Assembly: GCF_002355595.1 (NCBI RefSeq) | Contig: NZ_AP017422.1 | Span: forward strand, 4,900,823-4,964,822 | Length of the DNA stretch: 64,000 nucleotides | DNA from: Filimonas lacunae | GTDB taxonomy: Bacteria; Bacteroidota; Bacteroidia; Chitinophagales; Chitinophagaceae | Reading direction: 5' to 3' | Shown here: in pieces, positions 35,211-58,992 of the stretch | Numbering within the stretch: the stretch's first letter is position 1 | Layout: the number at the start of each line of letters is the position of its first letter | Position numbers and translations under genes: made by a program | Notes under the pieces: model-generated | Told to the model about the DNA's origin: nothing | Seen by the model: the letters and a program-made list of their open reading frames with translations, nothing else | The model's database searches: none

Positions 35211-37823
35211 TTATGGATTATTCTTCATCCGGATAAGGTTAGCCACCAATCCGCTCCACCCCGTTTGGTGCGAAGCCCCCAGCCCCTTACCTGTGTCGCC
35301 GTGAAAATATTCATGAAACAATACCAGGTTTTGAAAATGCGGATCGGTTTGCAGTTTTTCATTATCACCCAGTACCGCTCTTCTGCCCTGCTTATCTTTT
35401 ACAAACAGGGTAAGCAAACGTTTTGCCAGCTCATGCCCTACTTCCCGCAATGAATAGTATTTGCCGGATGCAGTAGGATATTCAATACGAAAATCATCGC
35501 TATAGAAATAATGGAACTTGCGCAGGCTTTCTATCATTAAAAAATTCATCGGCATCCAAACGGGACCACGCCAGTTACTGTTACCACCATAAATAGCCGT
35601 GTCGCTTTCGCCCGGTGTATATTTTACCCGCAGCTCTGTATCCCCTTCTTTCAGGCTATAGGGTTCCGCATCATATCTTTTGCTGAGCGAGCGTACGCCA
35701 TGTTCACTTAAAAATTCCGTTTCGTCCAGCATACGGCTTAACAAACGCTTCATGCGATGGCCGCGCAGCAGGCTTAACAAGTGCTTTTCATCCTTCCCTT
35801 CTTCGTACCAGCGTGATACCAGGCGGGCCAGATCGGGCCGGTGACGCAGAAACCAGGCCATACGTTGCGCAAACACCGGGTTACTGTCCAGCGTTTGTTT
35901 GGTAATTACTTCCACTGCAAAAAAAGGTATCAGCCCCACCAGGCTCTTTATTTTCACTTTTACAATATGCCCATCGGGAGAACGTATCTGGTCGTAAAAG
36001 AATTCATCTTCTTCATCCCACAAACCACTGCTGCCTTCCCCCATGCTGGCCATAGCGCCTGCTATATGCATAAAATGCTCAAAGAATTTAATAGCCATGC
36101 TGGTGTATACCTTATTGTAGTTGGATAACTCCAGCGAAATGTGCAGCATATTCAACGCATACATGGCCATCCAGCTGGTAGCATCTGCCTGCTCCATTAC
36201 AGCACCGCCGGGCAATATCATACCACGGTCGAATGCGCCAATATTATCCAGGCCCAGGAAGCCCCCTTCAAAAATGTTACTGCCGTTGTTATCCTTACGA
36301 TTTACCCACCAGGTAAAATTGATGAGTAGTTTATGAAACAGGGTTTCCAGGAAAGCATAGTCTTTTTTACCATTAACCGCAGCATCCTGCTTATACACAC
36401 GAAACACCGCTCCTGCATGCACCGGCGGATTTACATCCCCCAGCGACCATTCATAAGCCGGCAATTCGCCCGAAGGATTCATATACCACTCTTCTGTCAG
36501 CATCAACAATTGCTGCTTCGCAAAATCAGGATCTATCATACCCAATGTAACACAATGAAAAGCCAGATCCCACGAAGCATACCAGGGAAATTCCCATTTA
36601 TCAGGGACAGAGATAATATCCTCATTGTTCAACTGTTTCCAGTAGGCATTACGGCCGTTTTTTCGCTCCGGTGGCGGAGCTGGCATATCCGGATCACCAT
36701 CCAGCCATTGCTGCACTTTGTACGAATAAAACTGTTTATTCCATAACATGCCTGCCAGCGCCTGGCGTTGTACCAACCGTTCGTCGTCTTCAATCACATT
36801 GTACTGCACATCCTGGTAAAACGCATCGGCTTCCTGCAGGCGCTGCTGAAAAATACTATCAAAATCGCTAAACGCATCAGGTAGCTCCTGGGCACTTAAA
36901 CGTAGCTTTACCATATGCACACCCCGTGGTTCTATAGCCACATCATAATCAATAGCCACCTTGGTACCATGCAAATCCGGATGCACGGCAGGCTTAGCAT
37001 GTATAATATAATCGTTGATGCCATCTTTGGGATAAAGCGTGCTATTGGCACTCTGGTATAAACGCTCGTTATTGGTTTCGTTTTCGCAATACAGCGCGTT
37101 GCCACCGGCTTCATAATACAAATGCTTTACCGATAGTTTTTCGTGCTGAATTTTAACGCTGTTGCCTGAATCCTGCAATAGTACCGGTTTGTAGTCGTGC
37201 CGGCCCCAGCTCCAGGTGTTCCTGAACCAGGCAGTGGGTAATACATGCAACGCTGCACTGTGATTGCTGCGGTTGTGAATGGTTATTTTCACCAGTATAT
37301 CATCCGTACCCGCTTTGGCGTATTCTACAAAAACATCAAAATATTCATCATTATTAAAAATGCCGGTATCAATAATTTCAAACTCTTCCTGCTGACGGTT
37401 ACGGCGGGCGTTTTCTTCTACCAGCTGCCGGTAAGGAAACTCCAGCTGCGGATACTTATACAGCATTTTCATGTAGGAGTGCGTGGGCGTGGCATCCAGG
37501 TAGTAATAGAGTTCCTTTACATCTTCGCCGTGGTTGCCCTGCTGGTTGGTGAGCCCAAAAAAACGCTCTTTGATAATAGGATCTCTTTTGTTCCATAAGG
37601 CAATAGCAAAGCACAACAATTGCTTATCATCACTAATACCCGCTATACCTTCCTCTCCCCAGCGCCAGGCCCTGCTGCGTGCCATATCGTGTGTGGTGTA
37701 ATTCCAGGCATCGCCATTGGCGCTGTAATCTTCCCGCACGGTGCCCCATTGCCTGTCACTTACATACGATCCCCATTTCTTCCATCCTGCCTGCTGTAAT
37801 CGTTGCTGTTCTGTGTTCATCAT
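35211..37823 (-). CDS. GH63-like (MGH1/mannosyl-oligosaccharide glucosidase family) glycoside hydrolase
   Basis: N-terminal WKKWGSYVSDRQWGTVREDYS block characteristic of the bacterial GH63-like glucosidases; 870 aa. Confidence 0.7.
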   Translation of the reverse strand: MMNTEQQRLQQAGWKKWGSYVSDRQWGTVREDYSANGDAWNYTTHDMARSRAWRWGEEGIAGISDDKQLLCFAIALWNKRDPIIKERFFGLTNQQGNHGEDVKELYYYLDATPTHSYMKMLYKYPQLEFPYRQLVEENARRNRQQEEFEIIDTGIFNNDEYFDVFVEYAKAGTDDILVKITIHNRSNHSAALHVLPTAWFRNTWSWGRHDYKPVLLQDSGNSVKIQHEKLSVKHLYYEAGGNALYCENETNNERLYQSANSTLYPKDGINDYIIHAKPAVHPDLHGTKVAIDYDVAIEPRGVHMVKLRLSAQELPDAFSDFDSIFQQRLQEADAFYQDVQYNVIEDDERLVQRQALAGMLWNKQFYSYKVQQWLDGDPDMPAPPPERKNGRNAYWKQLNNEDIISVPDKWEFPWYASWDLAFHCVTLGMIDPDFAKQQLLMLTEEWYMNPSGELPAYEWSLGDVNPPVHAGAVFRVYKQDAAVNGKKDYAFLETLFHKLLINFTWWVNRKDNNGSNIFEGGFLGLDNIGAFDRGMILPGGAVMEQADATSWMAMYALNMLHISLELSNYNKVYTSMAIKFFEHFMHIAGAMASMGEGSSGLWDEEDEFFYDQIRSPDGHIVKVKIKSLVGLIPFFAVEVITKQTLDSNPVFAQRMAWFLRHRPDLARLVSRWYEEGKDEKHLLSLLRGHRMKRLLSRMLDETEFLSEHGVRSLSKRYDAEPYSLKEGDTELRVKYTPGESDTAIYGGNSNWRGPVWMPMNFLMIESLRKFHYFYSDDFRIEYPTASGKYYSLREVGHELAKRLLTLFVKDKQGRRAVLGDNEKLQTDPHFQNLVLFHEYFHGDTGKGLGASHQTGWSGLVANLIRMKNNP

Positions 37824-37860: not shown

Positions 37861-39570
37861 TTACCTTCTCATTTGCTTATATAGCAATATATCCTTCGTT
37901 AAATTGTGATCTTCTTTGTTAAAATGCTGTAACTCTTCGGCCATAGCAGGTTGCCCTTCTATATATTCCGCAATAATTTCATAGGCAATGTCTTTAATAG
38001 GAGCAGACAGTTCCGGATATTTAGTATAGGAGCCTTTTAATACATCCAGAAAAGCCGGCTTATTCCTTTCATTGGTTTCGCGCATATATATATTGTCAAT
38101 AGCGTTCATCACCAGCCTTTCTTCGCCTATGTTGGTAAGATATTTATCCAGGCAATTCCGGGCATCTCCTTTATAAGCACGCCAACCTTCCAGCAACAGA
38201 TTTTGTGCCTGTGCCATATCCTGTATTTTGTGCTGATAGATGTCTGCTGCTTTCGAATAGCGCTTCCCCTGTATATAATCATCCGCTACTTTACCATAAT
38301 GGTAAACAGCGTCTTCTTTTTGCCCGATACTCCTGTACAGATCGCCCGCTTTTTCATGCATGCCCAATTGCGCATACAACTCAATTGCCTTTAGGGTCAT
38401 ATTTCCATTTTCGTAACAGCGGGCAGCTTCAGCCAGATGATTACCGTGCTTTAGATACAATGCCGCCGCTTCGGCATACAGCTTTCCTTCTTCCAATGCC
38501 TTTGCGGCCTGGAAATGATCTTTTAACAGCTTTAAATACACAAAAGCTGCTTTTTCATACTGCTGTTGCTTCATCAGTTCCAATGCCGTAGCACGATACT
38601 GATCTTCCAGCCGCTTAAAGGAGTTATCTGTAAAACCAAAACTTCCTCCCACTCCACTACTGCTTCCTTTGCCTAAACCAAAATCAAACCACCGCTTGCC
38701 CAAGTCCCACTCCATCAACTTGCTGCCCCTTCCGGCCCCATCGGGATCCAGTGGTATGGCATATTGCAAAGCAGTATCCGGATCGTTCTTTAGCATATCC
38801 AACAACCTGTCCAGCTGCCTTTGGTTTCGCTGTTCCAGGTTTTCCAGGCTTTGCTGCATTTTCTGCAACCATTTACCATTCGTTTTTCCAGCCAGCCAGT
38901 TCGCGATCTTTAACCGCCAGCCCGACAATCCGGCACTGCCACCTGCAGATGGCATACCGCCCCTTAACAACAGGCGCAGTATCCAAAGCTTTATTTTTTC
39001 CCAGATGCCCAGGGGTTTATTTTCGAGTGATTTACTTTCCGGAAAAAGCTGCTCCTCCATTTTTTGTAATACTTCTTCCGCTGCCACCTCTTTTACCTGG
39101 TAGCTTTGAATCAATGCGGGCAAATGCACACCTTTAGCTGGCTGCACTATCTGTTGTTGTGATAGCTGTGGCATAGCCAGTAGCTGACTAAACTGTACCG
39201 GTTGCTCCAATTCGGTAATCCCGATTTCGGGGTGCCAGCAATGCAATTGCATTTTCAGCAACACGTTCACCTCTGTTGGAGTAACCACCGGATATATAGT
39301 GGAATAAGCAGGTATAAACAAACATTCGCCCACCAGCTGGCTGCGCACATGTATCCCTGTTTCTACTGCTGCCAGACCTTTCAAGGGCACCAGCAGGCAG
39401 CCCCATACGGTGTTGGCGCTGGTACCCGGTAAAGCATATACGTCCACTTCTAACAAAGACAAGCCCATTGCTTGTATTTCACGCAACCACAGCTTTACAT
39501 CGCCGCCCCGGATAAACAAGGCCTTTAACGGGTATTGATTCGTGATGGCGGGTTTAACTACTAGCTGCAT
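37861..39570 (-). CDS. Gly-rich / TPR-like helical-repeat protein; last gene of the MoxR operon
   Basis: 569 aa. It has Gly/Ser-rich low-complexity segments (GGMPSAGGSAGLSGW, GKGSSSGVGGSFGF) followed by repeated AxxYxxxG helical hairpins (YEKAAFVYLKL..., YAEAAALYLKHG..., IELYAQLGMHEKAGDLY...). Its start overlaps the upstream gene by 17 bp. Confidence 0.45.
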   Translation of the reverse strand: MQLVVKPAITNQYPLKALFIRGGDVKLWLREIQAMGLSLLEVDVYALPGTSANTVWGCLLVPLKGLAAVETGIHVRSQLVGECLFIPAYSTIYPVVTPTEVNVLLKMQLHCWHPEIGITELEQPVQFSQLLAMPQLSQQQIVQPAKGVHLPALIQSYQVKEVAAEEVLQKMEEQLFPESKSLENKPLGIWEKIKLWILRLLLRGGMPSAGGSAGLSGWRLKIANWLAGKTNGKWLQKMQQSLENLEQRNQRQLDRLLDMLKNDPDTALQYAIPLDPDGAGRGSKLMEWDLGKRWFDFGLGKGSSSGVGGSFGFTDNSFKRLEDQYRATALELMKQQQYEKAAFVYLKLLKDHFQAAKALEEGKLYAEAAALYLKHGNHLAEAARCYENGNMTLKAIELYAQLGMHEKAGDLYRSIGQKEDAVYHYGKVADDYIQGKRYSKAADIYQHKIQDMAQAQNLLLEGWRAYKGDARNCLDKYLTNIGEERLVMNAIDNIYMRETNERNKPAFLDVLKGSYTKYPELSAPIKDIAYEIIAEYIEGQPAMAEELQHFNKEDHNLTKDILLYKQMRR

Positions 39571-42205
39571 AATCTTGTATTTGAGTAATTAACGGCTGTA
39601 TAAAAGTATCATAAAACTCCTTCCCATTCATTTTCTCCAGCCAGCTCCCCGGCCCTTCAAAAGGTTTATAACGCTTGCTGCCTGTGTAACAGTAAGGGGT
39701 AGCCAACATTAATGAAGTTTCCAATTCAGGGGAAAAATACACGATAGGCTCCGTAGTCACTTTATTGATATACCCGGAAGCCCCAACATCTAGCAATTTT
39801 TGCAAAAAAAGCTCCGCCTGTTGTTTTCTATTTGTATGACACACCACAACAGGGCAGTTCTCTACCAGCTCAACCAAATTATTCAAGCCCATATACCAGC
39901 TCATACCCTCTTTCACCGTTTTAATAGTATACAACCTCTGCTCCCCCCGGCTGCTTAACACCAGCTCATACTTGCTTTGTCCTGCCGGTAATGCCCTTTT
40001 TATTTTTATCATTCCCTCTTTATCTACTGATACCTGGCTGCCATCAGCAAATTCAAAACAATGCTGCCGCTGGTTATATTGCGCAGCTATCCACACCCCA
40101 TCATCCTTCCTCGTACGCTCCAGTTGTATAGAACCATTTTCTTTTAACACCAGCCGATGGCTATTAAAAACCAACTTGCCACTGGAACTAACATATAACC
40201 GGGAAATATGGATTAACACATTCGAGCAACGCATCCACCACTGCTGCCACAAATCATTTATTTCCTGCTTCCTTTTTTCATAAATCGCCTGATACACTTC
40301 ACTGTATCCCTGGTGCATGGCGAATTGTAAGCCATCTTCCAGGGTAAACACTGCAATACTATTTGCCGTTACATGATAAAAAGCCCCCTCATAACACAAG
40401 AACCCATCCGGTATGTTACTACGGTAATACATTTTCTGACTGCCGCCAGTTTGCAGGTTAATTACCTCTACTTCACTTACCTGTTTTTTAAAACAAAACA
40501 AGTATTCCACACCATCCTTTCCCTTACCAGCTACATACGTTATTACGTGAGAAGGTAATTTTAAAGGCAATAGTTTCATCGGATATCCTATATCACTTTT
40601 ATACACCTGAAACAGTTGCCTATGCTTAGACACGATATACGCCTTCTCATCAGATGCCAACAAGTGCAGCACATACTTACGGGCAGGATATAGTAAAGGA
40701 CAACGATCCAGTGTGTCGCCAATGGGCATATCCGTTTTTGGCACCAACACCTTTTCCTGCTTCGGGACACGAGACACCAGTTTCTTAGACCATAGTTTTT
40801 CCAATGGCAACTGCATCTGTTGTACCAATTGCTGCCCCTGGCGTTTGTTTTTCCATACAGATACACGCCCGCTGCCGTTTACCGTTATCCAGTACTTAAA
40901 AACCGAATAATGAAGGCGAATTACCTGTTGCACTTCTTCATGCCTGGCTGCTGCTTCTGTAGAAATAAATATAATTTCCATCCGGTCAGTGGGTTGCCTT
41001 CCGGCAAAAAACTGCTGTAACCCACTGGCAGCATGTACGCCTGTATCCATCTGCCGTAAACTGTTTTCTATCTCCTCTGTGGTTTGATATAACACTTCCC
41101 GGCATTGCTTGCCAATCGCATAAAGATGGCAGTTCATATCTGTTTTAGGATGCCTGCCAATAGCTATACCTAATGCATAAGCCAGTTGCCTGGGTACTCC
41201 CCAGTTTTTAAGCGACACATCCAGCAGTATCACCCTTTCCGTGTCATCGGCCACCGGAGGCACCTCGCGCTGGTAATACAACGCTTCGTTATTGGCCAGC
41301 CGGGAAAGCAACAACACTTCTTCATTGGCAAATTCAGATACCAGCAAGCCTTCTAAACTCCCCTTGTTGGTGATATCCGTGATACCGCCTAACGGTTGCG
41401 CGCCGGGCTGGTACATATGTAAAGGAATACGCAAGCCTGCCCATACATGCCTTATCAAAGCGCCTACTGCAAAAGTGGCATCTTTGGCCAATAAAGTTTC
41501 TATCCAGGCTTCGGGTAGCATGCTATTTGTGGCCAGTTCTTCTTCCCATTCCGGTACCGGCAATATTTCCTGCCCCGGCACAAGACCTTCCAGTATACTA
41601 TCTACTGTAGGATATTGTGCAGCCAGCTTTGCCAGGAAGGCAAAATCTCCTAGAAACTTTCTTATTGCCTCACCTTGACCGAATGTAAGTACCCGTACCA
41701 ATCCCTCACGCTCACGGCTATCTTTATAGTCACTCCTGAACAACTGCAACCATTGTGCTGTCCGGGGCATTGCAACAGGATGCCGGTTTTTCCTGAGAAG
41801 ATGTAATACCAACAGGCGCTTGTTGGGCCCCTGAGTATATTCTTTAGGTATCTCAGCTATATTTCTTATTAAGGCCCACCCTTTCACAAAAAGGCCATTC
41901 ACATCTGCCCCTTCTGCATCCCCTTTGGGTTCATTCTTCAAAAAATCTAACAGCAAGTGATCATGTAACTGATGTAAAGAAGCAGAAGTATTATTACCAC
42001 AGGCCATTAGTATCAGCAGCAATGCTCCCAGCGGCGGCCATCCCTGCACCTGCATATCTTCCAATATATTGCACAACTCTTCCTGGAATACAATAGTATT
42101 GCCCTCACGCAGGCTTATCACACTGGCATCATCCTGCCATGTCCACCAATAGCTGTGGCACTCACCAAAATAAGTAGAAAATTTTGCACCTATTAAACGC
42201 TCCAT
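39554..42205 (-). CDS. Large (883 aa) MoxR-associated protein with a cryptic vWA-like central domain; paralog 2
   Basis: Long conserved blocks are shared with the upstream 877-aa protein (QGWPPLGALL, GALIRHVWAGLRIP, DITNKGSLEGLLVSEFANEEVLLLSRLANNEALYYQREVPP, ILLDVSLKNWGVPRQLAYALGIAIGRHPK, MDTGVHAASGLQQFF). The DVSLK...MDTG...IIFIST spacing resembles the vWA beta1-MIDAS, T-loop and beta4 elements. Confidence 0.5.
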   Translation of the reverse strand: MERLIGAKFSTYFGECHSYWWTWQDDASVISLREGNTIVFQEELCNILEDMQVQGWPPLGALLLILMACGNNTSASLHQLHDHLLLDFLKNEPKGDAEGADVNGLFVKGWALIRNIAEIPKEYTQGPNKRLLVLHLLRKNRHPVAMPRTAQWLQLFRSDYKDSREREGLVRVLTFGQGEAIRKFLGDFAFLAKLAAQYPTVDSILEGLVPGQEILPVPEWEEELATNSMLPEAWIETLLAKDATFAVGALIRHVWAGLRIPLHMYQPGAQPLGGITDITNKGSLEGLLVSEFANEEVLLLSRLANNEALYYQREVPPVADDTERVILLDVSLKNWGVPRQLAYALGIAIGRHPKTDMNCHLYAIGKQCREVLYQTTEEIENSLRQMDTGVHAASGLQQFFAGRQPTDRMEIIFISTEAAARHEEVQQVIRLHYSVFKYWITVNGSGRVSVWKNKRQGQQLVQQMQLPLEKLWSKKLVSRVPKQEKVLVPKTDMPIGDTLDRCPLLYPARKYVLHLLASDEKAYIVSKHRQLFQVYKSDIGYPMKLLPLKLPSHVITYVAGKGKDGVEYLFCFKKQVSEVEVINLQTGGSQKMYYRSNIPDGFLCYEGAFYHVTANSIAVFTLEDGLQFAMHQGYSEVYQAIYEKRKQEINDLWQQWWMRCSNVLIHISRLYVSSSGKLVFNSHRLVLKENGSIQLERTRKDDGVWIAAQYNQRQHCFEFADGSQVSVDKEGMIKIKRALPAGQSKYELVLSSRGEQRLYTIKTVKEGMSWYMGLNNLVELVENCPVVVCHTNRKQQAELFLQKLLDVGASGYINKVTTEPIVYFSPELETSLMLATPYCYTGSKRYKPFEGPGSWLEKMNGKEFYDTFIQPLITQIQDYAASS

Positions 42206-42207
42206 AC

Positions 42208-44841
42208 TTAACCACGGTTTACATTTTCAGCCAATGTACGTATGTTGCCTATAAACACATCTATATACCTTATATAAAATGGTCTGGGATCCCATCTTGT
42301 CAAAGAGACATGAGAAGGTTTGTAATAGACATTGCCAGTAAAATAATGGGTGGTTGACACTCCTAAACTTGTGTTCACCACCGCAGGAATAAACAGAAAA
42401 TATTCTGGCTTATTAGACTCTATTACTACATCAATACCATGCTGTTTCATTTCCTTTTGAAAAAGAACCGCATTGTTATCCATGTTATTATATGACTCCA
42501 GCACTACAGGGCAATGATTTAACATACTCCCATAGTGCATCATTTTCTGATCCCTATCTTTTTTACCTATCAGGCTTAATCTGTCAGCATGTTCCGTCCG
42601 GTGCACCACAGCACTCACAAAGCCTACACCTAAAGCTTCTTTACTTTTCAATACCAGCATTCCATTATCGTCCATGGCAATACTACTGCCATCCGGAAAA
42701 ACAAAGCAACTCTCTTTCTCCAACCGGATAGCCGTGATAGCTATCTGCTTTTTTTCCTCATCAGCTTCCAGCAATTTGATACCTACATCTACCAGAGATA
42801 AAACATATCTATTGTTCAATAATAACTGCCCGGATTTATTAACTGCCACATGTGTTAACCCACCCAGTGGTGCTTTATTGCTTACCCTGTAAAGTAAATC
42901 CACCTGCTGCTGATAAGTACGATACGCCTCTTCCGCCTGTAGCTGGTTCTCCTCTCCGGCAAAAGGATCATATCCACGCTTATACTTTTTAGCTGCCGCT
43001 TTCCGAGTTATAATATCCACAGTAACACATCCATCCACACATGTTATCACCAGCGCATTTTCATAGAAAAAGGCAGGGGCAAACAACTCTTCCTCACGCA
43101 GTTTTACTGTATACAGCGATCCCGTAAGTAAATCAATTAACAACACATCATTGACGCTGTAATCGATACAAAATAATATGTGTTCATTGCCGTTGAAGGT
43201 ACCCATTACATATTCCCATTGCCCTTGTGGCAACAACACGGGCAATAATCTCCAGCCTTTACTGCCAGGAGATTCTGCATGCCTGCTATCCAGTTGAAAA
43301 ATGCGGTTGCCTTTAATCACATACACTTCATTGGTTGCCATATTGCCTATCATCACACCTTCCCCGGTAAAAAAATGAGGATATAACAACGGACTATCCG
43401 GCAGCACTTCCCGCTTTGCCACATCTACCCGCACAGGCGGCTTTTCTTTTGCAGGCTGCCGCTTTTCCCAAAGCTCCTGCAAAGGCAACATCAGGCGTTG
43501 CATCTCCCGCCTGTTCTTATGCATGTTTTTGCTGAGTATAAGTTCGCCGCTGGCTTCAGCGGTTATAAAATAACTTACCAGGTGCTCATATTCACTGAAC
43601 ACCTTTAACACAGCTGGATGCTTGCTGGCATGCCGGGTGGAGATGTGTATAACTTCCATCTTCTTTTCCCGGGCGTTTGTTTTAAAAAACAGCTGTAAAC
43701 CCTCTGCGGCATGTAGGCTGGTATCCATTTGCTGCAGGCTGTTAACAACAGAATCTACAGTACTAAAGTCCAGCGCCAAACAGGTATTGCCAACTCCATA
43801 TATTTCGCAAGCGGTATTGCGTTTGGGGTGCCTGTCTATAGCCAATGCTATGGCGTAGGCCAGGGTACGCGGCGTGCCCCAGTTTTTTAAAGAAACATCT
43901 ATTACGATGGCTCGTATAATATCATCTTTTTCGGGCGGCGGTTCTTTATGTAAATACAAAGCTTCGCTGTTAGCCAACCTGGATAACATCACCATATCTT
44001 CATTGGCTAACTCGGAGGTTAACAGTTTATCAAAGTTGCCTTTGTTGGTGATATCCTGCACGCCGCCCAGCAATAATTCGCTCTCCTGCGGATGATATAC
44101 CGGAATGCGCAAACCCGACCATAGGTATTCTATCAACGCACCTATCTGGAAGGTACGGGAATGAGCTATGAGTTGTTGTATAAAGCTACCGGAAACACTT
44201 TCACTGGTCATATCTTCTTCGGGCACTTCCGGCATTCCCCCTATCAACGGCCAGGACATCTGGTCTGCTTTCTGCATTATAGCGCTTGCATTGGCAAACT
44301 TCCTGGCCATTAAAGCAATACACCTGAAATCATGCTCGCAATGCCGCAAAGCAGCACGAAAGGGTATTTTTTCAATCTCAGTAACATCATGTATCAGCAG
44401 CAAACGAATACGACTGTTAATGGATTTTGCTTTCTGAGCCGACAACATATTGTGGCAATAGGTAAAAATAGCCTGCATTACCATCAGCCGCTTCGCCCCT
44501 TTTTTATAGGCAGGTGGTAAATCCATCAAAGCCATATACACCGTTTTTACACTCACCCAATCTACCTGATCTAACACTTCTGTGGCATATTCCAACTGGG
44601 TGTTGAGCCGCCACTCTTCCATTTTCAGTAATAATGCTCTGGCCCCTTCTCCGGTGGCCGCCAGCGCTATCAACAGAGCCCCAAAAGGTGGCCATCCCTG
44701 TGTAGATAAAAGGCCCAGCACTTCACATACATATTCGTTAGTGGCCACAAAACTGCCATTCCACCAATCGATGGCATTACCGGCTTCACTTACCCGCCAG
44801 AAATAATCCGGTGAAATAGCTATGTACTTTTTTTCCTCCAT
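42208..44841 (-). CDS. Large (877 aa) MoxR-associated protein with a cryptic vWA-like central domain; paralog 1
   Basis: Paralog of the 39554-42205 protein (see that entry). The vWA-like core is AIVIDVSLKNWGTPRTLAYAIALAIDRHPK...MDTSLHAAEGLQLFF...VIHISTRHA. Confidence 0.5.
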   Translation of the reverse strand: MEEKKYIAISPDYFWRVSEAGNAIDWWNGSFVATNEYVCEVLGLLSTQGWPPFGALLIALAATGEGARALLLKMEEWRLNTQLEYATEVLDQVDWVSVKTVYMALMDLPPAYKKGAKRLMVMQAIFTYCHNMLSAQKAKSINSRIRLLLIHDVTEIEKIPFRAALRHCEHDFRCIALMARKFANASAIMQKADQMSWPLIGGMPEVPEEDMTSESVSGSFIQQLIAHSRTFQIGALIEYLWSGLRIPVYHPQESELLLGGVQDITNKGNFDKLLTSELANEDMVMLSRLANSEALYLHKEPPPEKDDIIRAIVIDVSLKNWGTPRTLAYAIALAIDRHPKRNTACEIYGVGNTCLALDFSTVDSVVNSLQQMDTSLHAAEGLQLFFKTNAREKKMEVIHISTRHASKHPAVLKVFSEYEHLVSYFITAEASGELILSKNMHKNRREMQRLMLPLQELWEKRQPAKEKPPVRVDVAKREVLPDSPLLYPHFFTGEGVMIGNMATNEVYVIKGNRIFQLDSRHAESPGSKGWRLLPVLLPQGQWEYVMGTFNGNEHILFCIDYSVNDVLLIDLLTGSLYTVKLREEELFAPAFFYENALVITCVDGCVTVDIITRKAAAKKYKRGYDPFAGEENQLQAEEAYRTYQQQVDLLYRVSNKAPLGGLTHVAVNKSGQLLLNNRYVLSLVDVGIKLLEADEEKKQIAITAIRLEKESCFVFPDGSSIAMDDNGMLVLKSKEALGVGFVSAVVHRTEHADRLSLIGKKDRDQKMMHYGSMLNHCPVVLESYNNMDNNAVLFQKEMKQHGIDVVIESNKPEYFLFIPAVVNTSLGVSTTHYFTGNVYYKPSHVSLTRWDPRPFYIRYIDVFIGNIRTLAENVNRG

Positions 44842-45596
44842 TACCCTTCACTTCTTTTTTGAGTAGTAATCCGTTGCATACTTAAACGGAAGGAACTAAT
44901 CGTTAAAGGCTGCAATTGCTGGGGAGCAATAGGTAACCAACTGCCTTCTTTTTGCCATAGCACCCAGTTATAATGGTCTTTCATATTACTACTAATCACT
45001 TCCGATAATATGCGCCATTCAAAATCGTAACCAACAGGTAGCAGAAAACGCTCATCCTTCCACAATACCTCTCCTTGCACGGGTAATAAAGGCACCCCTA
45101 TAACACAAGCGGTATGGTTATCCAGTATTATCCATTGCAGGGGCTGCAAACGCACAGCAGGCGCGGTTTCTATATAAGCCTGCAACACCTCCAGTTTCAC
45201 CAGCATCGCATATGCCTGCCTTTCCAGCTGGCTGGGCACCAGTGTAACTGGTATCGACTGCTGAATACCAAAGTAGTTGTGATTAAAGCCGGGCAGTGTA
45301 ACCCCTAAGCCTTTGGCTATAGGCTGCCAGTGTAAACCGGCAGGCATTGACTGTACCGGCACCAGTTTTCCAGCCGGAAACAGTTGCTGTTGTTTACAGT
45401 AATAGATAGTGATAAAAGGAATGCTTTTCACTGCCGTACTATCCAGCTGTTGCGGTGTAAAATCCTTTACCCAGCAATGCTCCCCCTCCTCTGCTATGCT
45501 CAGATTATCCCAATGCCTTATCCGCCCCAGGTAATGCCTGTGCGGCAGGGCCAGATGCAGCAGCCAGGTTATAGGGTTTGCAGCATCCTCTGCCAT
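44841..45596 (-). CDS. Hypothetical protein, operon member
   Basis: 251 aa. Its start overlaps the ATPase gene by 28 bp and its stop overlaps the next gene by 1 bp, so it is translationally coupled. Confidence 0.4.
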   Translation of the reverse strand: MAEDAANPITWLLHLALPHRHYLGRIRHWDNLSIAEEGEHCWVKDFTPQQLDSTAVKSIPFITIYYCKQQQLFPAGKLVPVQSMPAGLHWQPIAKGLGVTLPGFNHNYFGIQQSIPVTLVPSQLERQAYAMLVKLEVLQAYIETAPAVRLQPLQWIILDNHTACVIGVPLLPVQGEVLWKDERFLLPVGYDFEWRILSEVISSNMKDHYNWVLWQKEGSWLPIAPQQLQPLTISSFRLSMQRITTQKRSEG

Positions 45597-46699
45597 AACG
45601 CATCAATTTCCTTTTGAATAAATTGCTTTTGTTCCGCATCACTCACCCAATCGCACCGGGTTTGCACATAACGCAGCTTATCTTTCACTACATTCTGTTC
45701 TTCCGGCGACAAAGTGCTGTCGTTCCATTTCTGCACCAGCAAGGTCACCTCCTTCATTACCTCTTCGGCCTGCGGCACCTTATTGGTTAACGCCTGCGGA
45801 TGTGCAGTAGCTGCCGGCTCTTTTTCAATAATATTATTAATAATACCCGCCAGTATTTCTATCTGTTCTTCCGTATCCCATATATATTTCAGCACCCACA
45901 GATCGGACAGTTCCGCTACCTGGCGTTTACAGATCAATGCACTGGCCGCAATCAGGTTCTGCAACTTCACGGCACGGCGGTCGCTCACCTTAATGCCGGT
46001 GTTACGCAGACTATGAATGACATCTATATACTGCTTACGCACCGGTGCAATATCCACCTGGCGGCAAGCCTGTTGTAATTCTATAATAGCCTGCGGGCTA
46101 ATTACCGGTTGCTGTTCTTTTGCACGGCTTTCCATATTCCAGCCGGCCAGCAACACTTCGTGCAATCTGTCGGGGTTTACATAATCACACTTCACCCGTA
46201 TCAGAAACCTGTCCAGCAAGGCACTCAGCGCATCATCTTCAGGCAGCAGGTTACTGGCCCCTACAAACATCAGCGCAGGCAGCTTGCGGGTTTCTTTACC
46301 ACGGCGGAACAGTTTTTCGTTCAGCGCCATTAACAAGCTGTTTAAGATGGCGCTGTTGGCATTGAATATTTCATCTAAAAACACCAGCGATGCTTCGGGC
46401 ATCATGCCTTCGGTATTGGTTACCAGCTCGCCTTCTTTTAACCGGCGGATATCGAAAGGCCCGAATATTTCGTTGGGCTCGGTAAAACGGGTTAACAGGT
46501 ATTCAAAGTTCTTACCTCCTTCCAGGCATTCGCACAACAAGCGCACAATAGCACTTTTAGCGGTACCGGGAGGGCCTAATAAAAACAGGTTTTCGCGCGC
46601 TACCAGGCCTATGCCCAACAAATCGGCAATATCATCTTTACCCACAAAATTTTGTTTGATATAAGCCAGCACGGCATTCAGCTCATCTATCTGCTTCAT
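45569..46699 (-). CDS. RavA-like MoxR-family AAA+ ATPase
   Basis: Walker A LFLLGPPGTAKSAIVRLL and Walker B/sensor LVFLDEIFNANSAILNSLLMALNE. The block FEYLLTRFTEPNEIFGPFDIRRLKEGE closely parallels E. coli RavA ([27 protein letters not shown]). Confidence 0.8.
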   Translation of the reverse strand: MKQIDELNAVLAYIKQNFVGKDDIADLLGIGLVARENLFLLGPPGTAKSAIVRLLCECLEGGKNFEYLLTRFTEPNEIFGPFDIRRLKEGELVTNTEGMMPEASLVFLDEIFNANSAILNSLLMALNEKLFRRGKETRKLPALMFVGASNLLPEDDALSALLDRFLIRVKCDYVNPDRLHEVLLAGWNMESRAKEQQPVISPQAIIELQQACRQVDIAPVRKQYIDVIHSLRNTGIKVSDRRAVKLQNLIAASALICKRQVAELSDLWVLKYIWDTEEQIEILAGIINNIIEKEPAATAHPQALTNKVPQAEEVMKEVTLLVQKWNDSTLSPEEQNVVKDKLRYVQTRCDWVSDAEQKQFIQKEIDALWQRMLQTL

Positions 46700-46706
46700 A
46701 TAAACG

Positions 46707-47333
46707 TTATAAGTCTTTCCAGAAATAAGTAGTGTAATTGCCCATAGCCGCCATTACCCAAGGCTGCCACAACGGGTGTGTTGCCAGTGGTTTGTATTGG
46801 TATTGTATAATCCTGTTTACATACAATTGGCGTAAACAGTTATGTCGTAGTGCTATTTCCAATAGCTCATTCTCTATCCCTAACTCCAGGCCAATACCCG
46901 AATAATGCCAGCGCGTTAACACCTGCTCCAGCAAAGGAATCAGCACATCTTCTGCATCAATAGCCTGTAGCTGTTTAATAATCTGTGGCAAAAAGCGCAA
47001 ACAGAGATCTGCACTTAACATAGCCCCTTCCGTAACCGGGCCGGTATAGGACGGCAGCAGCGTGGGTATCTCTTCCACATGGTGTTTACGATCGAGCAAT
47101 AATAAAGAAGCCGTATACACCACCTGTGCCCCCCACAAAGCAGCAGCGCCATCAAACACCGGGGCGGTGCCGGGATATTCCAGGCATTCATTGCCATATT
47201 CCATTTCCAGAAAATGCGTCAGCAGTTCTTTATCTTCTTCCAACGGTGGCGTGTAGGAGGTATGCAGCAGAATTTCTTCGTGATTACGCAGATGGTAAAT
47301 GGTGTCCAGGAAAAAGTTGTTCAGAGTTGTCAT
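46707..47333 (-). CDS. Hypothetical protein, first gene of the MoxR operon
   Basis: 208 aa ending 7 bp upstream of the ATPase start. Confidence 0.4.
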   Translation of the reverse strand: MTTLNNFFLDTIYHLRNHEEILLHTSYTPPLEEDKELLTHFLEMEYGNECLEYPGTAPVFDGAAALWGAQVVYTASLLLLDRKHHVEEIPTLLPSYTGPVTEGAMLSADLCLRFLPQIIKQLQAIDAEDVLIPLLEQVLTRWHYSGIGLELGIENELLEIALRHNCLRQLYVNRIIQYQYKPLATHPLWQPWVMAAMGNYTTYFWKDL

Positions 47334-47414
47334 TCTATCAGGGGGAATGCTTCAAATATAAGCATTTTAGCCGCGGCTACTGCCTAAAAACGGGTTAGCT
47401 TTGCGTCAACTTTT

Positions 47415-48238: not shown

Positions 48239-48841
48239 ATGCAACACACCTGGCTGCTGGCGCAAGAAGAAAAGGAACTGGTGCAAAATGCGCAGTGGCT
48301 GCTTACCAAGCAACGGGTGATTGAAAAAGTGTACGAACTATTCGGACAATTAAGCACCGCCTATACGCCTTTACTACAACAGTGCACGGCAGCCGATGCT
48401 GCCGTTAAAGCCGTATCGCCTAAAATTGCACGCGGCGAGTTTTACCGGCAGCTGCCTTATGTGGTACTGGACCAGCCCCGTTATTTTAAACAGGACGATG
48501 CCTTTGCCATCCGTTCTTTTTTCTGGTGGGGACACAGCTTTAGCATTCACCTGCACCTGGCGGGGCATTATAAAACCCTGCTTCAAAACGTATTGTCGCA
48601 AAAGTTAGCTGCCGGCCATTTGCAACAGTGGCAGGTGGCCACAGGTTCCGATCCCTGGCAGCATCATTTTGCCCCGGATACCTACATCCCTGTTACGCGC
48701 AATAACCACCCGGCTGTGCTGCAAACCTGGCAACAACAACCTTTCATAAAACTGGCCCGGGAACTTCCTTTGCAACAATGGGAACATGCCTATACCTTTT
48801 ACGTGGAGTCGTTTACGGCATTGATGGCCTTACTGGCCTAA
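48239..48841 (+). CDS. Hypothetical protein
   Basis: 200-aa ORF beginning 2 bp after the SDR stop (likely co-transcribed). No motif recognised. Confidence 0.4.
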   Translation: MQHTWLLAQEEKELVQNAQWLLTKQRVIEKVYELFGQLSTAYTPLLQQCTAADAAVKAVSPKIARGEFYRQLPYVVLDQPRYFKQDDAFAIRSFFWWGHSFSIHLHLAGHYKTLLQNVLSQKLAAGHLQQWQVATGSDPWQHHFAPDTYIPVTRNNHPAVLQTWQQQPFIKLARELPLQQWEHAYTFYVESFTALMALLA

Positions 48842-49249: not shown

Positions 49250-49732
49250 TTGCCTGCTATGGAATTATTAGAAAATCAACTTACCGTAAAAATATCCACC
49301 CTTCCAAATGCCGGCAAGGGCCTGTTTACTAAAAAAGCGATTATCAAAGGTGATAAAATTGTAGAATACACGGGTAAAATCACTACCTGGAAAGAAGTAG
49401 AACATACAGAGGGCACTAACCCCTACATCTTTTATGTGAACAAAAACCATGTGATAGACGCCAGCAAAGACGAATCTTCTATTGCTAAATATGCCAATGA
49501 TGCCCGCGGATTAACCAGAATAACCGGACTGGTTAACAATACAGAATTTGTAGAAGAAGGCACCCGCGTGTTTCTGATAGCTACAAAAGACATTCCTAAA
49601 GGAGGTGAAATTTTTGTGGGATATGGTAAAGAGTATTGGGATACCGTGAAGTTCAATATGAAAATTGATAAAGATGCCGCTGCTAAAAAAGCTGCCGGGA
49701 CTAAAAAGAAAAAGAAGAAAGCTAAAAAATAA
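49250..49732 (+). CDS. Bacterial SET-domain (putative protein-lysine methyltransferase) protein with a C-terminal poly-lysine tail
   Basis: GKGLFTKKAIIKGDKIVEYTG (SET-N GxG region), YANDARG (pseudo-NHSC position) and GGEIFVGYGKEYW (SET-C ELxxDY-like). The C-terminus reads KDAAAKKAAGTKKKKKKAKK. Confidence 0.6.
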   Translation: MPAMELLENQLTVKISTLPNAGKGLFTKKAIIKGDKIVEYTGKITTWKEVEHTEGTNPYIFYVNKNHVIDASKDESSIAKYANDARGLTRITGLVNNTEFVEEGTRVFLIATKDIPKGGEIFVGYGKEYWDTVKFNMKIDKDAAAKKAAGTKKKKKKAKK

Positions 49733-50104: not shown

Positions 50105-53100
50105 TTAACGCAGTAAGGTTACAGAACCCTGCCTGTGAATAACACGTCCATCTCTGTCAACACCTTCTGCCACCCATACATAAGTAGCCAATGGTTGTAA
50201 CTCGCCGTTAACATAACCATCCCAGCCATTGGCGGCATCACTGGTTTCAAACACCTTTTTACCCCAGCGGTTAAACACGCGGAAGTAGTTCAGCTTTTCC
50301 ACGCCTCTCAGGTTAGGCAGCAACTTATCGTTCTGGCCATCCCCGTTAGGCGTAAACACGTTTGGCACCAGTATGTCGTTACTAATCAGCACCTGCACCA
50401 GCAGGGTATCGGTAGTAACACAGCCCGATGGGAAGGTCATGGCTATTTCATACGTCTGGCTATTGTTTAGGGTAACCGTTGGGTTATAAACAGTAGCAGC
50501 AGACAAGCCGGTAGCAGGCGTCCAGCTGTAAGCAGCAGTAGTATAATTACGACATGTTATTGCCAACGGCTGGCCATTGGATGCAAAGGCTGTATTTAAC
50601 CTTACGGCTGGCACAGGCGCTTCTACAGTAATAGCATGGGTTACTGTAGAGTCTAACACAGGACACTCTAACAAGCTCACCTTTAATACAACATTATACG
50701 TACCGGCAGCAGCATAAGTAAACTCCGGAGCAGCCACAGTGCTGGTTTGTCCGTTGCCACTTTCCCAGTTGTAATGTACCGTAGCACTGTTGTCTACAGC
50801 AGAGCTGTTGGTAAAGGACACCGGTACATCTTTACAATAGCTGTCGAAGCTAAATGCCGGCTGTGGGGCAAGCAGTTGTGTTACTGCCAGGTTATTGCCT
50901 GCCATAGCACTACAACCATAGGTATCGGTAGCTTTAGCGGCGTAGGTACCCGGCGCATTAGCCGTCAGTGCCCCCGTGGTGTTACCAGCCACAGTCGCAT
51001 TATTGTAATACCATTCAAACGTATAAGTTCCGGAAGCCTGTAATGGCAGCTGCTTACCTGTGCCACACAATATCAATCCCTGGCTGGCCGATAAAGTACT
51101 CACCGGCAGCGGCGTTACGGTTAACTGACCATTTACATAAGTAAATACATAATCAGCAGCAGCAGCACCGGAAGGCACAATTACATAATCCCCTGCGGCC
51201 GACTGTGCAGTAGCAGCAGAAGCAGCTGTTGGCTGTGCCGTTAACACGGTAACAGACTCGCTGTTTACCCAACCACTATAGCTAAAGGCATAGTCGGGAT
51301 TCGCCACGCCATAACAACGATTGGTATCCTTAGCCGTAATAGTTACCGTAGCTGGTTGAATGGTGAGGGCACCATTTACAAAGCTGATAGTATAGTTATC
51401 AGAAGTAACACCACCCGGGGTAATTACATACTGGTTTACATGCGCTGCTCCCTGCGAAGTACCAGTGTACACCATTGTGCCACCCAACACTCCCGGTTGT
51501 TCATTACTTACCAGGCCACTATAGGTAACGCCATTACCGCCATTGAAGGCTGTGCCATCGTAGGTTTTAGTACTGTCTTTAGCCGTAATGGTTAAGGCAG
51601 CTTTATCTATGGTAAGCGCACCATCCACATACGTGATAGCATAGTTACCCGAAGTAACACCACTGGCAGTGATGCTATAAGAACCCGCATCGGCAGCACC
51701 TTGTGCAGTGCCGCTGTAAGCAATATTACCCGACAACACAGCTGCATCTTCATCAGGTACAAAACCACTGTAAGTAACGCCATTGCCGCCACTAAAGGTA
51801 GTAGCGTCGTAGGTTTTGGCACTGTCAGTAGCTGTAATAGTTAAAGCTGCCTGGTTAATTTGTAAAGCACCGCTGGTATAGCTTACAGCATAGTTATCTG
51901 CTGTTAAACCACCCGGGGTTATTATATATATATTAGCATCTTTAGCGCCCTGTGAGGTGCCACTATAAGCCAGTGTACCGGTTAAAGCAGCAGTGGAATC
52001 TTCATTATTTACAAAACCACTGTAAGTAACACCATTGCCACCGCTAAAGGCAGTGCCATCGTAGGTTTTGGTGCTATCGGCAGCAGTTACGATTAAAGCC
52101 GCTTTATCAATAGTTAAAGCGCCATTGGCATAGCTGATGGTATAGTTATCAGCAGATAAGCCACCCGGCGTAATAACATAGGTATCGGCTTTGGTAGCGC
52201 CTTGTGCGCTGCCGCTATAAGCCAGCGTACCGGTTAAAGCAGCAGTAGAATCATCCCCTGTTACAAAACCAGTATAGCTAACACCATTACCACCACCAAA
52301 GGCCACACCGTCATATGTTTTGGCGCTATCCTTCGCAGTTACGGTTAAAGCAGCTTTGTCAATGGTTAAGCTACCATTAGCATAGCTGATGGTATAGTTA
52401 ACAGCCGTTAAACCACCCGGTGTAATAACATAGGTATTCGCATCTTTAGCTCCCTGAGAAGTACCACTATAGGTTACTGTACCGGTTAAGGCTGCCGTAG
52501 AATCATCACCTGTTACAAAACCGGCATATTCCAAACCATTACCATCGTTGAAGGCGGTACCATCGTAAGTTTTAGTACTGTCTTTTGCTGTGATGGTTAA
52601 TGCGGCTTTATCAATGGTTAAAGTACCATTGGTATAGCTGATAGCGTAGTTGCCCGCAGATAAACCACCCGGAGTAATGATATAGCTATCGGCATTAACA
52701 GCCCCTTGCGAGGTTCCACTGTAAATTACTGTTCCGGTTAACACAGCAGTGGAATCTTCTCCGTTTACAAAACCATTGTAAGTAACACCATTGCCACCGT
52801 TAAACGCAGTACCATCATAAACCCGGGTACTATCAGTAGCAGTGACGGTTAACGCAGCTTTATCAATAGTTAAAGCACCGTTTACATAGTTAATAGTATA
52901 GTTACCGGCAGATAAACCACCCGGTGTGATCATATAAGCATTGGCATCAACAGCTCCTTGCGAAGTACCCGTGTAAGTGAGGTTACCGGTTAAAGCAGCA
53001 GTAGAATCGTCTCCTGTTACAAAACCAGTATAGCTAACACCATTACCACCGCCAAAGGCCACACCGTCATAGGTTTTAGTGCTATCCTTGGCAGTTACAG

Positions 53101-57895: not shown

Positions 57896-57987
57896 CTTAG
57901 AAAAGGAGGTTATTTCCATGATTGAATACAGGAAACTGCTGCCACTTTTTTACAGTGGTGCAGTAGATATAAAAATGTATAGAGGGA

Positions 57988-58992
57988 TTAGTAAGTAACT
58001 ACCGGGCTGGCGGCCACCTTTTGTGTATGCCCTTTGCCCATTTGCCATACAAACGACAACTCCAGGCTTTGTACAGAAGCATTGCTTGCTGCGCCGGAGG
58101 TAACAAAATCGTAAGTAAGCCCTACCAGCCAGTTTTTGGTTTCCAGTGCAAAGTAAGGATACCAGGCATCGCCAAAGCGATTCCAAACGCCTACGTTTAC
58201 ACTGCGCAGCAGTTCGTCGTTCACACCTATTTTATATATACCACCCAGGGTATAAATGCTGTTGTCACCCTGCAACTCGGCCAGTGAACTGAAATGAAGA
58301 GAGTTATTATAGCCTACCTGCATCCAGCCACCTGCTTGCAAAGTGGTTTTGGTAGGCATATTATAGGTAGTATTACTGTAAGCACCTTCGCGGGGTTTGT
58401 TGGCATGGAACAGTGCACCGCCAGCAGACAAGCCAAATTTTTCAGCAGTATAGCTGTAAGTTAATCCCGCACTTACGTCCAAATAGGTATTCTTTTGAAT
58501 AGTAATACCGTCATTGGCAGGTATGCTGCGTTGAAAACCCATAGAGCCTAACTGCGATTGAAAGAGAAATTTACTGGCATCGAGTACCCGGTTGGCATAG
58601 GTGCCGGTAAGCCCTGCCCCCAGCATATGCCTGCCTTGTGCATCCAGCGTAATATGATAAGCAGCGGATAAAGAGAAGTAGTTGTTTTTTAAAATACCAC
58701 CGTTCGATTGGTCGCTTAAAGCCACTAAACCTAATCCCCAGTAGTTTTGTCCGTTGCCCAGCCTTTTTTCCAGCGAAGCGGTTTCGGTAAAATACGGTTT
58801 AATAGATTGCCCCCACCATTGCGAGCGCATATTGATGGCACCGCGCCAATCATCTACCCCTTTGGCAGTTAAGGCCGGGTTCACCAACATGGGAGCACTA
58901 AAATATTGCGAAAAATGCGGGTCTTGAGCTTGTAGGGCTTCACTAGTGAACAAAACATAGCAACTCAGAAGCAGGTACTTCAGTTGTTTCAT
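57988..58992 (-). CDS. PorP/SprF-family type IX secretion membrane protein
   Basis: Signal peptide followed by QDPHFSQYFSAPMLVNPALTA, the PorP/SprF N-terminal signature. It lies directly downstream of the type-B cargo gene, as usual for this family. 334 aa. Confidence 0.8.
   Translation of the reverse strand: MKQLKYLLLSCYVLFTSEALQAQDPHFSQYFSAPMLVNPALTAKGVDDWRGAINMRSQWWGQSIKPYFTETASLEKRLGNGQNYWGLGLVALSDQSNGGILKNNYFSLSAAYHITLDAQGRHMLGAGLTGTYANRVLDASKFLFQSQLGSMGFQRSIPANDGITIQKNTYLDVSAGLTYSYTAEKFGLSAGGALFHANKPREGAYSNTTYNMPTKTTLQAGGWMQVGYNNSLHFSSLAELQGDNSIYTLGGIYKIGVNDELLRSVNVGVWNRFGDAWYPYFALETKNWLVGLTYDFVTSGAASNASVQSLELSFVWQMGKGHTQKVAASPVVTY

Follow-up and report, generated by a model that had tools for sequence, protein, structure and literature searches.

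The six-gene MoxR operon of Filimonas lacunae: very likely a Bacteroidota-type MoxR-vWA-beta-propeller ternary system with two tandem large subunits

Does the compact operon that Filimonas lacunae carries around a MoxR-type AAA+ ATPase represent a system of its own, and what might it do for the cell? The operon lies on the minus strand at positions 37861-47333 of the 64,000-nucleotide (nt) stretch of chromosome analyzed here (hereafter the window; assembly GCF_002355595.1, contig NZ_AP017422.1, positions 4,900,823 to 4,964,822). A first-pass annotation had regarded it as an undescribed system that could not be named. Our analysis leads to a different answer: the operon is almost certainly the F. 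lacunae copy of the Bacteroidota-type MoxR-vWA-beta-propeller ternary system. A fuller reading, in which this identity is combined with a conflict-type function, a large subunit duplicated in tandem and a self-contained cytoplasmic cassette, appears probable to us. The six genes, with coordinates read directly from the window sequence, are as follows:

46707..47333, minus strand: gene 1, bpX4 protein, 208 amino acids (aa)
45569..46699, minus strand: gene 2, bpMoxR, 376 aa
44841..45596, minus strand: gene 3, bpX2 protein, 251 aa
42208..44841, minus strand: gene 4, giant protein G1, 877 aa
39554..42205, minus strand: gene 5, giant protein G2, 883 aa
37861..39570, minus strand: gene 6, bpX3 protein ('third component'), 569 aa

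The sequence at the junctions shows how tightly these genes are packed. The bpX4 and bpMoxR genes are 7 nt apart, the bpMoxR and bpX2 genes overlap by 28 nt, bpX2 and G1 overlap by 1 nt (TAATG), a 2-nt gap separates G1 from G2 (TAAGTATG), and G2 overlaps the bpX3 gene by 17 nt; the first-pass annotation had all of these six positions, gaps and overlaps exactly right. Identical gene calls were made independently in the public record GCA_900156765.1 (F. lacunae, contig FTOR01000003.1). Because every product matches a Pfam family (E from 5e-103 to 2e-35) and the gene order recurs in 82 other loci, the six genes are real open reading frames (ORFs).

Identity follows from a Pfam-A scan, in which all six products match families named for the 'MoxR-vWA-beta-propeller ternary system'. 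Along the operon these families appear in the order bpX4 (PF19920), bpMoxR (PF20030), bpX2 (PF19918), bpX0 plus bpX1 (PF19915 and PF19917, twice) and bpX3 (PF19919). The system was described by comparative genomics as subsystem 4 of Kaur, Burroughs, Iyer & Aravind (eLife 2020; PMC7159879, section 22), and two of the F. lacunae products, G1 and bpX2, already bear its name in UniRef. The first-pass view that the other four products belong to no recognisable annotated family thus gives way, as bpX4, bpX2, bpX0/bpX1 and bpX3 families are all present. A previously undescribed MoxR-seeded system with partners of no known family is therefore ruled out as a working candidate and seems exceedingly improbable: a curated Pfam family named for the system exists for every partner, the system has been described in section 22 of the 2020 study, and the UniRef names are in place. 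What can be said for it is that NCBIfam and PADLOC hold no models for the five partners, and that a literature search met the names bpX and bpMoxR in unrelated senses only and brought up no experimental work.

The published description of subsystem 4 agrees with the F. lacunae operon in most respects. According to PMC7159879, its hosts include Bacteroidetes; its MoxR proteins often have an unusual P-loop variant, GXXXTAKS, which is also reported for the FtsH ternary systems; its vWA domains, remarked upon as divergent, are strictly followed by a small beta-propeller; about 62% of its vWA proteins have a long alpha-helical N-terminal and a beta-rich C-terminal domain; several Bacteroidetes members carry L12/ClpS-type inserts; the third component combines tetratricopeptide repeats (TPR), a membrane-spanning segment, a beta-propeller and a 'highly variable' N-terminal domain; and extra linked genes encode unique alpha and alpha+beta domains. 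All component families, the P-loop variant, the order of vWA domain and propeller, the host phylum, the bL12/ClpS-type insert, the TPR repeats of the third component and the additional alpha and alpha+beta accessory proteins are found here. The F. lacunae operon differs in having two tandem vWA-propeller genes instead of one and a third component with neither a membrane-spanning segment nor a detectable beta-propeller, and in the Bacteroidota subfamily as a whole the N-terminal domain of bpX3 is conserved and not 'highly variable'. A search of supplementary text of PMC7159879 gave no occurrence of 'Filimonas', 'propeller' or 'L12'.

The likeness to the MoxR-vWA-associated (VMAP) systems that the first-pass annotation had drawn was right as to the broad class, namely the ternary MoxR-vWA conflict systems proposed by the Aravind group, and wrong as to the subtype. 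The VMAP systems (subsystem 1, PMC7159879) share with our operon a MoxR AAA+ ATPase, a vWA partner, a third conserved protein and a predicted thresholding logic. Unlike them, the F. lacunae operon contains no VMAP protein and no effector domain (trypsin, caspase, cyclase, nuclease or the like) fused to the vWA protein, its ATPase belongs to the bpMoxR clade and its vWA domain is much more divergent. The Pfam-A scan of the six products gave no VMAP or effector family, the only matches being to the bp families plus AAA, L12 and SNAP.

The ATPase is the most strongly matched component. It hits PF20030 with E = 5e-103 (343 bits against a cut-off of 27), in addition to AAA_5 (E = 3e-26) and AAA_lid_8 (E = 2e-10), and both Walker motifs are intact, Walker B (LVFLDE) beginning at residue 105. 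Across Bacteroidota families bpMoxR is 73-81% identical. Its Walker A motif is located as follows:

46553..46576, minus strand: Walker A motif GPPGTAKS (bpMoxR residues 42-49), matching the GXXXTAKS variant of PMC7159879

The nearest solved structure is the AAA+ module of Escherichia coli RavA (E = 3e-40), which bears out the earlier description of the seed as a RavA-like MoxR AAA+ protein. The match covers RavA residues 34-294 only and leaves the LARA region unmatched, and the score against the NCBIfam RavA equivalog is 175.5 bits, below the threshold of 681; apart from this sub-threshold match, NCBIfam yielded only a weak L12 match among the six products. The operon resembles E. coli RavA-ViaA in its RavA-type AAA+ module (AAA_5 plus AAA_lid_8) and in encoding a vWA partner downstream. 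It differs in that there is no RavA equivalog, no LARA domain and no ViaA match, in having three additional obligatory genes, and in that the 880-aa multidomain partners are unrelated to ViaA by sequence; nothing seen here connects the operon with LdcI or with respiratory complexes.

The two giants are true paralogues, as had been proposed, with 31% identity over their full length (E = 4e-108). They share one architecture, which in G1 runs from a helical bpX0 domain through a conserved motif segment, a non-canonical vWA domain, a beta-propeller, the beta-rich bpX1 domain and a degenerate insert resembling the C-terminal domain of bL12 to a C-terminal helix. In Pfam, bpX0 is matched with E = 3.4e-40 in G1 and 2.1e-35 in G2, and bpX1 with E = 8.7e-12 in G1 and E = 1e-4, below the cut-off, in G2. 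An AlphaFold2 model of G1 (predicted local distance difference test, pLDDT, 75.7) begins with a helical domain formed by residues 1-195. Residues 220-300 make up a further helical segment, which contains the most conserved motif, and residues 305-455 an alpha/beta domain; beta sheets follow at 486-625 and 656-736, then a beta-alpha-alpha-beta-alpha-beta unit (741-810) and the C-terminal helix. Helices at residues 35-194 and strands at 665-732 match what is expected of bpX0 and bpX1, and a Foldseek search with the model agrees with this domain layout. The parts of the giants on which the argument depends are:

43933..44085, minus strand: most conserved giant segment (G1 residues 253-303), column identity 0.70 against 0.25-0.44 in the other domains
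43477..43929, minus strand: vWA (Rossmann-like) domain of G1, residues ~305-455, with the loop D315-V-S317-L-K319-N-W-G
42967..43386, minus strand: beta-propeller region of G1 (residues ~486-625), one of the most variable parts of the giants
39776..39967, minus strand: bL12 C-terminal-domain insert in G2 (residues 747-810), PF00542 E = 9.7e-6, 26.3 bits against a cut-off of 25.9

The earlier suggestion that the giants contain degenerate vWA domains is borne out by comparison of the model with known structures: the alpha/beta domain has the vWA fold, and its best match is the metal-ion-dependent adhesion site (MIDAS) domain of Midasin/Rea1. The assignment rests on fold comparison because none of 28 giants is matched by a Pfam VWA family, with E values up to 1 allowed. 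Across 76 giants the MIDAS loop reads D-x-[ST]-[LI]-[KR]-N-W-G-x-P, so the canonical form (DxSxS with a distal Thr and Asp) is not found; 71 of the 76 have Lys or Arg in place of the second Ser, and none of the expected distal loops holds a conserved Thr or Asp in this set. The resemblance to the Midasin/Rea1 MIDAS domain and to NorQ-NorD is one of fold only, at 13-15% identity, and the domain differs from them in its DxSxK loop without conserved distal residues.

Directly N-terminal to the vWA domain lies the conserved segment, which G2 has as well, with the consensus PSxQPLGG[IV]SDLTNKGDFDKLLISEFANDDxVFLSRLANNEALYIxRExPP. In short form it reads GG[IV]SDLTNKGDFDKLLISEFANDD.VFLSRLANNEALYI.RE.PP, and many of its positions are invariant in 76 of 76 sequences. 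AlphaFold2 confidence for G1 is low at residues 250-275, and the segment possibly makes contact with the motor. At the opposite end of the scale stands the propeller, below which score only two short linkers and the L12-like insert, itself rarely present.

The bL12 C-terminal domain found in giants is real. The family profile matches bL12 chains at E = 6e-7, the G2 segment on its own matches the bL12 chain 8rdw_D over the whole domain (E = 7.9e-5), and the insert is present in 13 of 28 giants. Most copies retain basic residues at the positions equivalent to E. coli K65 and K70, which are reported to contact EF-Tu (PMC10602876). In G1 the insert has decayed, its beta-alpha-alpha-beta-alpha-beta topology remaining and no sequence signal being left.

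The three smaller partners are less easily related to known structures. The bpX4 protein matches its family over the full length (E = 8.8e-78), is an all-helical accessory component without a transmembrane (TM) segment, and finds no relative in a PDB profile search. The bpX2 protein (E = 6.7e-91) is composed of two small alpha+beta domains, for which a PDB sequence-profile search gave nothing. Both are accessory proteins without a recognisable enzyme fold. The two bpX2 domains are joined by a loop with a conserved motif:

45264..45296, minus strand: bpX2 inter-domain loop (residues 101-111), motif FNHNYFG, pLDDT below 50

In this loop, which is predicted to be disordered, N105, N107 and F109 do not vary, and H106 and G110 hardly do. 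Such a pattern is one that would sooner be looked for in a docking or processing peptide than in the core of a fold, and a docking role may be suggested.

The 569-aa bpX3 protein begins with the bpX3 N-terminal domain (residues 2-172, E = 5.3e-56), which is conserved within the Bacteroidota subfamily. It continues with a low-complexity Gly-rich linker and a conserved NQ..D.L...L..NP..AL.YAIPLD..G..RG motif and ends in TPR/SNAP-like helical repeats (residues ~305-481 and beyond). Its earlier description as Gly-rich and TPR-like is supported by the Pfam SNAP match (E = 9.4e-7, 29 bits against a cut-off of 25) and by the bpX3 profile, which in PDB reaches the TPR region of IFT144/WDR19 at E = 4e-5 and alpha-SNAP at 0.19. 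A strong TM helix, located between the N-terminal domain and the TPR region (around residues 240-350 in most of those listed), is present in 33 of 69 bpX3 homologues (loci L004-L079), mainly from Flavobacterium. The window protein has none (best 19-residue Kyte-Doolittle mean, 1.4); like many Chitinophagaceae and Cytophagales homologues, it has the Gly-rich linker in that place. Neither Pfam nor the PDB profile search revealed a beta-propeller in it. As no convincing TM helix was found in any of the six operon proteins, all of them appear to be cytoplasmic.

How is the cassette distributed? One strict bpX2-derived peptide pattern was searched over 185,579 species genomes, which makes the resulting counts lower bounds: at least 86 matches were obtained from 80 loci, nearly all in Bacteroidota, with Flavobacterium, Chitinophagaceae, Cytophagales and Saprospiraceae as the main groups. 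The bpX2 family comprises 1,299 clusters at 50% identity among 1.84 billion representatives. In all 82 related loci the order is bpX4, MoxR, bpX2, one giant and bpX3, complete or up to the end of the contig; bpX4 comes first in 80 of the 82, the two exceptions being broken off at a contig end. Among 81 loci no sixth conserved gene was found beyond genus-level synteny. In Bacteroidota the cassette is thus a rigid five-gene unit, the five families always occurring together and in a fixed order.

Against this background the two tandem giants are unique to F. lacunae among 83 loci, every other complete locus having one. Filimonas zeae and a Filimonas-like metagenome contig carry the cassette at the same chromosomal site with a single giant, sharing a SET-domain gene, the gene of a 200-aa protein and a short-chain dehydrogenase/reductase (SDR) gene upstream and a GH63 gene downstream. 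In a neighbour-joining tree G1, G2 and the F. zeae giant group together on long branches, with F. zeae beside G2. For a lineage-specific duplication of the giant this tree is weak evidence. Since all 21 family-invariant residues are kept in both G1 and G2, neither copy looks like a pseudogene.

The function of the cassette is a second question, on which we are more cautious. By analogy with related systems, a role in biological conflict or defence is a tentative proposal for which the case is nearly balanced. A hexameric MoxR would use ATP to remodel or gate the vWA-propeller scaffold, as in RavA-ViaA, NorQ-NorD, CoxD-CoxE and Midasin. Scaffold and TPR protein would together form an ATP-dependent sensor or threshold switch operating in a conflict such as phage infection (after Kaur et al.). 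The variable propeller would be the likely ligand-recognition surface, and the second giant might widen or split the recognition specificity or hetero-oligomerise with the first. As to output, translational GTPases might be captured or competed for, which would act as a brake on translation. On ribosomes, the bL12 C-terminal domain recruits EF-Tu, EF-G, IF2 and RF3. Such an output is proposed because this domain is the only module in the cassette with a known cellular partner, and the retention of basic residues at the EF-Tu-contacting positions of the inserts is a sign in its favour; we nevertheless consider capture of, or competition for, translation factors doubtful. Still more speculative, and a long shot in our estimation, is the idea that L12-bearing giants are ATP-gated 'decoy ribosomal stalks', in which a trigger at the propeller would lead bpMoxR to remodel the scaffold in such a way that its L12 domain captures EF-Tu, EF-G or IF2, so that translation would be throttled and abortive infection or dormancy would result without a conventional enzyme effector. 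G1, with its decayed L12, and G2, with an intact one, would then be a sensor/effector hetero-pair or alternative sensors on one motor.

Several signs are in keeping with a conflict function. The distribution is sparse, the partner proteins have diverged strongly in Filimonas and few domains are less conserved than the propeller. In a few loci the gene immediately upstream encodes a defence-type reverse transcriptase, and Esr, a related MoxR-vWA-propeller pathway, has been shown experimentally to sense an epibiont threat. The reverse transcriptase, of about 500 aa and with a RYADD motif, is found upstream of the cassette in four loci and directly adjacent to it in two of them (L021 and L032); its best PADLOC model is RT_XIII (E = 1.9e-191), and it is the only recurrent defence-type neighbour found:

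L021:6431-7975: reverse transcriptase
L032:152-1660: reverse transcriptase (L007 and L022 also have it, by clustering)

Apart from it, no recurrent defence neighbour was detected in 81 loci beyond genus-level synteny.

Other observations weigh against a conflict function. None of the six proteins contains a recognisable effector domain, and it is for lack of one that Kaur et al. termed subsystem 4 enigmatic (PMC7159879). Searches with PADLOC (PADLOC-DB v2) gave no match for the five non-ATPase products and only a marginal AAA+ match for MoxR (E = 0.0021, 15 bits). With its DxSxK loop, the vWA domain may not use the classical metal-mediated grip on peptides, and the window bpX3 protein, having neither a TM helix nor a detectable propeller, departs from the third component of the published system. 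The cassette has no defence-island context: the window neighbourhood is ordinary chromosome (SDR, SET, GH63, SPFH, a type IX secretion cargo and a two-component system), and 121 ORFs flanking 21 diverse loci match 170 Pfam families, most of them of housekeeping type. Just two plasmids carry it, both of them large, non-mobilizable and from Bacteroidota, a phage collection contained no bpX2 homologue, and within a Flavobacterium clade the cassette is syntenic and apparently vertically inherited. A literature search combining MoxR and vWA with anti-phage terms found no experimental work on subsystem 4 or on any member of it.

Much of this evidence would also fit the main rival explanation, according to which the cassette is an accessory housekeeping chaperone, with MoxR and the vWA scaffold assembling, maturing or quality-controlling a cellular complex and no invader involved; given the bL12 insert, the client may be related to translation or the ribosome. 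All characterised MoxR-vWA pairs, as named in PMC7159879, are assembly or maturation chaperones, and Midasin/Rea1, the best structural match of the vWA domain, works in ribosome biogenesis. The lack of an effector and of any PADLOC match beyond the marginal MoxR one, the housekeeping-type neighbours, the vertical and syntenic inheritance within the Flavobacterium clade and Filimonas and the extreme conservation of MoxR point the same way. On the other hand, so sparse and patchy a distribution sits poorly with a housekeeping function, no conserved client gene is found nearby, and the bpX3 membrane anchor and the L12 insert are each present or absent among homologues, which suggests a modular, changeable system. 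Nor was either of the findings made that would have told against the first-pass reading: the giants match no housekeeping family, and the neighbourhood is not core across the family but varies between genera, shared flanks being found only within one Flavobacterium clade (about 21 loci) and within Filimonas. On balance we regard the chaperone explanation as rather unlikely, though it deserves to be taken seriously.

Rates of divergence bear on both explanations. At the syntenic Filimonas loci the flanking proteins are 57-87% identical and MoxR 78-81%, whereas bpX4, bpX2 and bpX3 reach 42-56% and the giants only 29-34%; between the other two Filimonas-like genomes the giants are 42% identical. 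Such divergence beside well-conserved neighbours speaks against a housekeeping chaperone. In close Flavobacterium pairs, however, the partners diverge at roughly the rate of the flanks or at a somewhat higher one, with MoxR always slower, as the chaperone explanation would have it and contrary to what a conflict function would lead one to expect. Because these pairs show flank-like rates, hypervariability is not a general property of the system, and we rejected it as a general arms-race signature. The divergence in Filimonas could instead reflect lineage-specific relaxation after duplication, which likewise detracts from a conflict function. Replacement of the Filimonas cassette in situ by horizontal transfer is not favoured either, as the Filimonas-like genomes stay among the nearest relatives for bpX2 and the giants; this evidence, from neighbour-joining trees with long branches, is weak.

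A third explanation is a non-lethal threat- or stress-sensing module comparable to Esr of Actinomycetota, in which the propeller senses and MoxR-vWA signals to a response encoded elsewhere, with no built-in effector. Like our cassette, Esr combines MoxR, a vWA protein and a beta-propeller, in Esr a sequence-diverse sensor, and has been shown by experiment to sense a biological threat (bioRxiv 10.64898/2026.09.08.750141); it is needed for the transcriptional response to Patescibacteria, and its outputs are encoded elsewhere. Such an arrangement would explain the missing effector domain and fits the low conservation of the propeller. But Esr also has a Ser/Thr kinase and phosphatase pair, FHA proteins, a secreted filamentous sensor with a signal peptide and a link to Esx secretion, none of which is found in the F. 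lacunae operon. No kinase or FHA family is among the recurrent flank families, the cassette lacks a conserved regulator or DNA-binding domain, and all six proteins appear cytoplasmic. A sensing module of this kind is accordingly quite improbable in our estimate, and conflict or defence remains the function that we prefer, at the tentative strength given above. Another operon of the same phylum, the Bacteroides aerotolerance (Bat) operon (MoxR, DUF58, the vWA proteins BatA/BatB and a TPR protein), resembles ours as a Bacteroidota operon with MoxR, vWA and TPR proteins.

The surroundings of the operon add some detail. Upstream, the SDR gene is transcribed divergently, and the 81-nt intergenic region (47334-47414) contains one promoter-like element. 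The Bacteroidetes sigma-A promoter has the -7 consensus TAnnTTTG, which is matched here:

47353..47360, minus strand: Bacteroidetes-type -7 box TATATTTG, 19 nt upstream of the bpX4 ATG; a consensus match only, from which no function follows

Scans for sigma-70 promoters and terminators gave counts no higher than in shuffled sequences and are uninformative for the promoter question.

Downstream of the cassette, 37 nt away on the same strand and with no terminator-like hairpin between, lies a gene for a GH63/MGH1-like glycoside hydrolase (870 aa, 35211-37823, minus strand), with which the cassette may be co-transcribed. It is 83-87% identical in the other Filimonas-like genomes; outside these it does not adjoin the cassette, and it is therefore not counted as a member. 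Beyond it are genes for a PQQ/BamB-like beta-propeller protein (639 aa, 33056-34975, minus strand) and an SPFH/Band 7 protein (639 aa, 31041-32960, plus strand); a 634-aa Band_7 gene is likewise found downstream on the Filimonas-like contig L083.

On the other side, the 200-aa protein (48239-48841, plus strand) has no Pfam or NCBIfam match; its gene starts 2 nt after the SDR stop codon and stands beside SDR in all three Filimonas-like genomes, at 57-66% identity. It is followed by the SET-domain protein (49250-49732, plus strand; PF00856 E = 5e-13 and a weak PRDM2_PR match), which has the same position in F. zeae and on the Filimonas-like contig L082. A 2604-aa adhesin with Beta_helix, MBG_2, YDG and PKD repeats and a CHU_C type IX secretion signal (50105-57919, minus strand) is encoded next to a PorP/SprF gene (57988-58992, minus strand). 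As the SET gene of L082 directly adjoins a response regulator and a histidine kinase, the adhesin-PorP pair looks like an insertion in the F. lacunae lineage or the result of differential loss. Among the cassette records, four carry non-Bacteroidota labels (L003, L023, L055 and L071): a Williamsia sp. metagenome-assembled genome (MAG), the complete genome of Glaciecola amylolytica THG-3.7, a Hydrocarboniphaga MAG and an Ignavibacteria MAG. These could be cases of mis-binning or mislabelling, or else of horizontal transfer.

The system was thus defined in 2020 by comparative genomics and has its own Pfam families, and its F. lacunae instance is already labelled in public databases. That no experimental study was found is a feature this locus has in common with roughly a thousand others. 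What the F. lacunae variant adds to the known system, namely a pair of diverged vWA-propeller subunits and a third component without a membrane anchor, is modest. The five-gene cassette, the confirmed non-canonical vWA fold and bL12 C-terminal-domain insert, and F. lacunae as a natural variant are usable starting points, and the bL12 module in particular offers a concrete and cheap hypothesis, namely that these proteins may bind translational GTPases.

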